Part shown: positions 21,767 to 22,610 of the stretch, one piece after another
Position numbering within the stretch: position 1 is the stretch's first letter
Layout: each line of letters opens with the position of its first letter
Origin: a virus
Taxonomy: Duplodnaviria > Heunggongvirae > Uroviricota > Caudoviricetes
Length of the DNA stretch: 22,610 bases
Strand: one strand, 5' to 3'
IMG/VR virus record: IMGVR_UViG_2526164650_000003
Position numbers and translations under genes: made by a program
Notes under the pieces: generated by a model
The model's input: only the letters and a program-made list of their open reading frames with translations
The model's database searches: none
What the model was told of the DNA's origin: nothing

Positions 21767-21964
21767 ATGGGCAATGTGATTCAACTGGCTCCCAATGAAT
21801 GGGTTTGTGAAAGCGTTCTAATCGCAATTACCGGGCTCAAACCAGGCACAATTCTTCGGACCCGGAAAGAATGCTGGATGGTTGGAAGAGAGTATATTCA
21901 CGTATCACCAGACGGTAATCCAAAGCCTTCTGAAGTGGTCAACAAAAACTGGCCACCGAGTTAG
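21767..21964 (+). CDS. Excisionase-like (Xis-type) DNA-binding protein, 3' end replaced by IS sequence
   Basis: [50 protein letters not shown]... resembles the lambda Xis pattern (...ETVRRWVRECRIFPPPVKDGREYLFHESA...). From 21931 the reading frame is IS911-like terminal repeat sequence, so the last ~11 codons are IS-derived. Confidence 0.45.
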
Positions 21965-22326
21965 AGTTTTTCCTGTATCGATTTTCCGATTCGTTTGGGG
22001 GTAACCCACCGTTATATTCGTGCGGTCTTAGTGCGCTGTAATATCCAACGATATAGTCCGTTATGGCGTGAGCTGCCTCGCTGAAGCTTACGTAACCCAC
22101 CACCGGCATCCATTCGTTCTTCAGACTCCTGAAGAAGCGTTCCATTGGGCTGTTATCCCAGCAGTTTCCGCGCCGGCTCATACTCTGTCTGATCTGGTAT
22201 CGCCACAATAACTGCCGGAACTGCCTGCTCGTATAATGACTGCCCTGATCGCTGTGGAACATCACCCCGCCGGGCTTACCACGGGTTTCCCATGCCATTT
22301 CCAGCGCTTTCATGGTGAGCCTGCTG
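21931..22326 (-). mobile_element. IS3-family (IS911-like) remnant: right terminal repeat plus 3' part of orfB
   Basis: Terminal sequence TGAAGTGGTCAACAAAAACTGGCCACC at 21931 onward; minus-strand ORF fragment ...[49 protein letters not shown]... is the C-terminal DDE region of an IS3-family OrfB. The 5' part of the element is missing, cut off by the IS66-family end. Confidence 0.7.
21939..22326 (-). pseudogene. IS3-family (IS911-like) transposase OrfB, C-terminal fragment
   Basis: Open frame carrying the DDE-domain C-terminal motifs listed above, with no N-terminal region or orfA. Confidence 0.7.
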
Positions 22327-22610
22327 GTAAGCGCCCCGAGAAGTACGTAGCGTAAGGATTATTTTACAGACGAGAAGTTCCAGGGCAGCAGTTTATGCAC
22401 TTGGTTCGACGGCCAGTCATTGAGCTTCTCGATCACTTCGCGCAACCAGTCCTCCGGCTCCACTTCGTTCTGTTTGCAGGTGACCAGCAGACTGTAGATG
22501 ATCGCCGCACTTTCTCCTCCCTTGTCTGAGCCGAAAAAGAGATAATTTTTTCTTCCAACCGCCACCGATCGTAACGCGTTTTCACCGATGTTGTTGTCTA
22601 TTTCCACCCA
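22327..22610 (-). mobile_element. IS66-family insertion sequence, terminal part (continues beyond the window)
   Basis: Terminal sequence GTAAGCGCCCCGAGAAGTACGTAGCG at 22327 (IS66-family ends typically begin GTAAGCG); adjacent minus-strand ORF is the C-terminus of an IS66-family TnpC transposase. Confidence 0.6.
22359..22610 (-). CDS. IS66-family transposase (TnpC), C-terminal part; ORF continues past the window edge
   Basis: ...IDNNIGENALRSVAVGRKNYLFFGSDKGGESAAIIYSLLVTCKQNEVEPEDWLREVIEKL... is the conserved C-terminal signature of IS66-family TnpC. Confidence 0.7.
   Translation of the reverse strand, partial: WVEIDNNIGENALRSVAVGRKNYLFFGSDKGGESAAIIYSLLVTCKQNEVEPEDWLREVIEKLNDWPSNQVHKLLPWNFSSVK

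Follow-up and report, generated by a model that had tools for sequence, protein, structure and literature searches.

Two successive insertion sequence events probably formed the integrase-proximal edge of a defective prophage at yecE in a Shigella flexneri-type chromosome

The region from 21767 to 22610 of the window (the whole stretch of DNA analysed here, 22,610 bp, which is the entire draft contig AFHD01000027.1 of assembly GCA_000213495.2) is most probably the integrase-proximal edge of a defective lambdoid prophage at yecE in a Shigella flexneri-type chromosome. It was probably shaped by two successive IS events, an older deletion that removed the integrase gene (int) and then an insertion of ISSfl3. 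The features used in this analysis, with the basis for each, are the following.

13771..14967, plus strand: IS110-family transposase gene (NCBIfam NF033542, E=1e-70), between FI (13106-13507) and Q (16153-16848)
17740..18558, plus strand: IS3-family transposase orfB (NCBIfam NF033516, E=8e-100), with a truncated nin-region ORF on one side and the early-left genes on the other
19056..21758, plus strand: early-left-operon genes before xis (SPFH/Band_7, ORF6N, beta-clamp-like/PHROG 3007, DUF4222, 48-aa ORF), in the gene order of relatives retaining xis and int
21767..21930, plus strand: xis', the 5' 164 nt (55 codons) of a DUF1233-type excisionase gene (Pfam and PHROG matches; alignment to the intact gene of a relative)
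21931..21964, plus strand: 10 aa and a stop from the right inverted repeat of IS911, which end the chimeric Xis' ORF (sequence and translation)
21931..22326, minus strand: IS911 right-end fragment (~IS911 nt 854-1249) with the right inverted repeat (IRR) and the C-terminal 124 codons of orfB (identity to annotated IS911; transposase model match)
22327..22610, minus strand: right end of ISSfl3 (IS66 family), with the terminal repeat GTAAGCGCCCC... from 22327 and the last 82 tnpC codons (22359-22607) (identity, pCP301 terminus and transposase model); it stops at the contig end

A truncated excisionase gene runs into IS911

The Xis-like ORF (21767-21964, 65 aa) is chimeric. Xis' matches Pfam PF06806 'putative excisionase' (E=7e-23) over profile positions 1-55 of 70, short of the full length of the profile, and PHROG 539 excisionase (E=1e-27). 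The native gene, intact in a relative, measures 237 nt and encodes 78 aa; 55 of these 78 native residues are kept in Xis', with one A->T substitution among them, and the last 23 are swapped for 10 aa read from the IS and a stop. Xis' is a truncated member of the DUF1233-type phage excisionases. At the nucleotide level, the intact gene of E. coli CFSAN029787, whose 3' sequence is CAGTGAATGTATG... / CAGTGAATGTATGTATAAC..., shows 99.8% identity with xis' through nt 164.

An earlier note on this DNA, made from its letters, had proposed that the Xis-like frame enters an IS911-like terminal repeat at 21931 and that about 396 bp of the right end of this IS are kept. Both points are borne out, as the 55 native codons are followed by the IS911 IRR, and homology to IS911 starts at 21931 with TGAAGTGGTCAACAAAAACTGGCCACCGAGTTAGAG and ends at 22326, a length of exactly 396 bp. 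Compared with copies that thousands of E. coli records annotate as 'IS3-like element IS911 family transposase', positions 21931-22326 show 99.5-99.7% identity, above the 95% taken as the minimum for IS911, over 396 of its ~1250 bp, which is all that the window has. IS911, a member of the IS3 family, was first described in Shigella dysenteriae. Its terminal inverted repeats are imperfect and start with 5'-TG; the IRR in the window (21931-21966) is the same as that of IS911 (TGAAGTGG...) and equals the left inverted repeat (IRL) of the sister locus L003 at 24/36 positions, the first 8 included. The orfB part lies on the minus strand at 21939-22313, and the 124-aa OrfB fragment that it encodes, with the same C-terminus as OrfB of IS911, aligns with the IS3 transposase model (rve/rve_3) at positions 262-368 of 369. 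Full IS911 copies in the sister loci and in E. coli records are annotated with a programmed frameshift, whereas the window has only the last 124 orfB codons, in a right-end fragment broken at ~nt 854 by ISSfl3.

The identical 65-aa chimeric protein, which is specific to the junction of xis and IS911, occurs in 288 collection blocks; in 39 of them the longest carrying contig exceeds 1 Mb, and in 238, as in most short-read assemblies, the contig is only 2-5 kb. The protein, 55 native residues with their 10-aa IS-encoded tail, is exactly conserved in at least 39 blocks with contigs >1 Mb. It might persist, not as a dead remnant, but as a small regulator that binds DNA and acts, for instance, on other prophages in the same cell, a role that we regard as highly improbable.

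The integrase gene is gone in sister chromosomes that lack ISSfl3

The same junction between xis and IS911 is present in seven complete chromosomes (L002-L008; seven shown among the 25 contigs read). Over the 1,327 bp of the window that end at 22326, each of them shows about 99.8-99.9% identity, and it diverges only at the ISSfl3 boundary. More specifically, L003, from chromosome CP026788.1, is 99.95% identical to the window over 10,560 bp (11767 to 22326), with zero gaps and 5 substitutions. A full 1249-bp copy of IS911 occupies the same site in sister genomes; the element is of full length (1247-1249 bp) in 6/7, the seventh (L008) carries a 2,270-bp insertion, and ISSfl3 is absent from 7/7. 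The insertion in L008 (10652-12921, CP020086.1) encodes a group II intron reverse transcriptase (RVT_1 and GIIM) and is a second, independent element nested in the IS911 copy at the xis' site.

In all seven chromosomes, IS911 is preceded by ...caaagccttc and followed by cccataatggg..., and the right flank is not xis. The 3-bp target duplication of a simple IS911 insertion is missing in 7/7 (the flanks are ...ttc and ccc...). This leaves the identity of the IS unaffected, and it marks the copy as the joint of a deletion or recombination, not a simple insertion. Beyond the element, the sister chromosomes carry a yecE remnant, yecN, cmoA, cmoB, torZ, torY, cutC, yecM and argS. No integrase gene was found downstream of IS911 in the seven sister chromosomes.

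Intact relatives show the layout that such a joint replaces. Positions 20700-21930 of the window are matched at 99.8% by E. coli CFSAN029787 and three other strains, and about two dozen genomes cover most of this stretch at 92-94%. In CFSAN029787 (EIEC) and CAU16175, the order is xis (78 aa), tyrosine integrase (437 aa), yecE, yecN, cmoA, cmoB and torZ, with the 3' end of int overlapping the start of yecE; identity over this intact layout is 99.8% in CFSAN029787 and 94% in others. The yecE gene is a recognised prophage integration locus (PMC8112680). The window shares with the yecE-integrating lambdoid prophages of E. coli/EIEC (CFSAN029787) the early-left order SPFH, ORF6N, clamp-like, DUF4222, 48-aa ORF and xis at 99.8%, and the sister genomes share with them the chromosomal neighbourhood from yecE to torZ; it differs from them in that the 3' end of xis, int, att and the 5' part of yecE are deleted. 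When L003 was aligned to the intact CFSAN029787 locus, homology ran up to xis nt 164 and resumed only at yecE nt 427. The 162 bp between IS911 and yecE' in L003 are the terminal sequence of a different prophage, and 47 E. coli genomes have that prophage at this very point of yecE (nt 427). The scrap lies at 11414-11576 of L003 and at 9001-9163 of L012.

It had been proposed that the nested insertions replace the expected integrase. This does not hold, as int is already gone in the seven chromosomes that have the same IS911 junction and an IS911 uninterrupted by ISSfl3. Judging from this, the loss of int predates the arrival of ISSfl3 and is independent of it.

ISSfl3 ends inside the IS911 fragment

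From 22327 onward, the window reads GTAAGCGCCCCGAG... (GTAAGCGCCCCGAGAAG...) and is 99.6% identical over 284 bp to annotated ISSfl3 copies. Homology to ISSfl3 begins at this same base in many independent contexts, and base 22327 corresponds to the physical end of a complete 2754-bp ISSfl3 copy on the S. flexneri plasmid pCP301, the two ends of which share the inverted GTAAGCGCCCC at 11/11 bases. The ISSfl3 end in the window has a terminal inverted repeat beginning with GTAAGCG. The 82-aa C-terminal fragment of TnpC, a DDE transposase, aligns with the NF033517 IS66 transposase model at positions 326-386/387, and high nucleotide identity accompanies this match. The pCP301 copy (L014), which has the tnpA-tnpB-tnpC organisation, shares both the terminal repeat and the TnpC C-terminus; the window ends inside tnpC. 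Indeed, the earlier note was right that an IS66-family element ends at 22327 inside IS911, this base being the true terminus of ISSfl3, and right on the nesting and on both IS families, since the comparison of the IS ends with annotated IS911 and ISSfl3 copies gives the same boundaries.

ISSfl3 (spelt 'ISSlf3' there) and ISSfl4 are among the IS that PMC7373316 gives for the reference genomes of S. flexneri, and ISSfl3 is common on S. flexneri invasion (pINV-type) plasmids, with about four matching places per plasmid in PLSDB. In contrast to these copies, the one studied here is chromosomal, consists of the last 284 bp only (contig end) and is nested in IS911 at a junction unmatched in the other records searched. 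The junction of IS911 and ISSfl3 was not found in 5426 complete E. coli genomes, in PLSDB plasmids (133 Shigella plasmids included) or among GTDB species representatives, and an exact-protein look-up returned the 124-aa truncated OrfB ORF solely for AFHD01000027.1. The ISSfl3 insertion apparently is a later, strain-specific event.

We also considered that the IS911-ISSfl3 junction may be real and belong to another copy of IS911, the xis-adjacent copy being intact as in the sister chromosomes. Starting in xis, the assembler would then have read 396 bp of IS911 that are identical between copies and come out at a foreign junction. IS911 is multi-copy in Shigella, where it ranks among the five IS that have expanded in every species (PMC7373316), and the contig ends 284 bp past the junction; however, the junction falls exactly at the IS terminus, where IS911 and ISSfl3 have no common sequence to seed a chimera. 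Consensus anomalies do occur in another repeated region of the contig (six unique single-base insertions in the multi-copy tail), but the contig crosses the IS110-family and IS3-family transposase genes unbroken, in the same places as complete genomes, and its gapless alignment to a complete genome extends right up to 22326. Furthermore, the technology used here evidently resolved repeats better than in the 238/288 blocks whose Xis' contigs reach only 2-5 kb. As to the reciprocal junction, it was modelled as the ISSfl3 IRL (...GGGGCGCTTAC), the 8-bp duplication GCCTGCTG and the remaining IS911 (~nt 853->1). Five reciprocal chimeric OrfB'-ISSfl3 ORFs predicted in this way (tail ...SRRKRPISDVL) had no exact match in the collection, which leans towards a mis-join but carries no weight if that junction, too, falls at a contig edge, as it probably would. 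On balance, we consider a mis-join unlikely and retain an ISSfl3 insertion in the IS911 copy next to xis.

The contig stops 284 bp into ISSfl3, a multi-copy IS, and its end at 22610 is an assembly break, the assembler being unable to cross the element. It had also been stated that no integrase follows xis in the window. None is present, but with 284 bp left before the end of the draft contig this is trivial; because the contig breaks inside a repeat, the absence carries no information by itself. Taken with the state of the sister chromosomes, the integrase and the att site are almost certainly missing in the strain of AFHD01000027.1, and the sequence past the contig end would be expected to equal that of the sister genomes.

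A proposed order of events at yecE

Because the 162-bp scrap is the tip of a different yecE prophage, the ancestor may have had two tandem prophages at yecE, a lambdoid prophage at the 5' end of the gene and a second prophage inside it. In a first step, old and lineage-wide, IS911 would have inserted into xis after nt 164. An IS911-associated deletion would then have taken the tyrosine integrase gene in full, with the att at the int/yecE boundary, and cut into the genes on both sides, costing xis its last 73 nt and yecE its first 426 nt; nearly all of the second prophage would have gone as well. Such a deletion could have arisen by intramolecular transposition (adjacent deletion) or by recombination with a second IS911 copy, either of which might leave one IS911 without target duplication as the joint. 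From the missing duplication and the two flanks, we infer that the insertion probably came before the deletion; the end state itself is seen in the sister chromosomes. In a second, recent step, ISSfl3, a resident of the invasion plasmid, would have inserted into orfB of the xis-adjacent IS911 at ~nt 854, splitting the DDE (rve) domain. Together with the loss of the head/packaging/lysis/immunity modules, the outcome would be a chromosomal remnant fixed in place, with Xis' truncated and Int and att absent.

A plain insertion of IS911 (with its ISSfl3) in xis, with the remainder of xis, an intact integrase and att just past the contig end, is very doubtful: the sequence beyond 22610 is unreadable and a different xis allele in strain FDAARGOS_944 has a simple IS911 insertion that keeps the xisR remainder and an integrase gene next to mlrA, but the junction studied here is base-identical in 7/7 chromosomes shown, all with the deletion joint, and a window that differs by 5 substitutions in 10.5 kb is very unlikely to come from a pre-deletion lineage.

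In FDAARGOS_944 (L001, 6166-7672), the prophage carrying this different xisR allele is at mlrA (yehV), and IS911 has inserted about 20 bp upstream of the site seen here, as a simple insertion with the remaining xisR and the integrase gene kept. This was rejected as the same insertion event on account of the allele, the site and the retained int. Excisionase genes apparently are repeated targets of IS911.

Loss of prophage modules and the H gene

The tail genes lom, J, I, K, L, M, H, T/G, V, U, Z, FII and FI lie on the minus strand. By the ORF map and PHROG matches, no lysis, terminase, portal or capsid genes are found between FI and Q. An IS110-family (RNA-guided type) gene sits at this FI/Q joint, where ~10 kb of late genes are missing, and is in the same place in all sister chromosomes. 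Further on, a truncated nin-region ORF (17198-17473) matches PHROG 2565 at positions 146-203 of 204. No immunity/replication region was found in the window, and the IS3-family element stands in the expected place. Unlike the lambdoid prophages integrated at yecE in E. coli, the prophage has lost its head, packaging, lysis, immunity and replication modules, with IS elements in their places, and the complete late region and the immunity/replication region of an excision-competent lambdoid prophage are both missing.

The earlier note had argued that the prophage is immobile, in part from frameshifts in H. The conclusion that it cannot excise is supported, but the argument from H is weak. H is split into several ORFs by six single-base insertions, at 8131, 8145, 8155, 9155 and 9950 and near 8101-8106, the last within a short, poorly aligning stretch. 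By alignment, none of the six is present in the EIEC relative or in six complete-genome copies, and the syntenic H of CP026788.1 encodes an intact 1013-aa tape-measure protein. In exact look-ups, the 400-aa and 367-aa H fragments were not on record, and the 276-aa fragment was on record for AFHD01000027.1 only. The tail region has at least two near-identical copies per genome. For the H frameshifts, an error of the draft consensus is as likely as a real mutation, and as solid evidence of immobility they were rejected, the insertions being unique to the draft contig. Immobility is better shown by the rest of the prophage, because the lysis, terminase, portal, capsid, immunity and replication genes are missing; it is over-determined and holds independently of the end formed by xis and IS911. 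Four of the H insertions, all of them a T in CTGT-like surroundings, cluster within ~55 bp, and the six have the look of draft-consensus errors.

Prophage remnants that lack an integrase and are interrupted by IS are a regular part of Shigella chromosomes. The locus is a feature of this known kind, part of ordinary Shigella genome decay, and matters little beyond annotation. It resembles the IS-driven decay described by Hawkey et al. 2020 (PMC7373316), in which IS911 and IS600-type elements break genes and mediate deletions at sites that vary among strains, with no difference of substance; the yecE locus is one more instance. Its practical value lies in correct annotation as an xis pseudogene, an IS911 fragment, an ISSfl3 end and a contig break, and the nest of ISSfl3 in IS911 could serve as a strain-specific lineage marker. 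The absence of an integrase in the window and the H frameshifts call for caution, as they are artefacts of, or unique to, the draft assembly.

Two annotations touching this region are in conflict between records. The 189-aa ORF at 20673-21242 is a 'beta clamp domain-containing protein' in some RefSeq records, and its PHROG 3007 match is labelled RusA-like resolvase. The element now called ISSfl3 in RefSeq (L014, pCP301 3503-6256) was labelled 'ISSfl4 ORF1-3' in the original pCP301 record, which could mislead IS comparisons.
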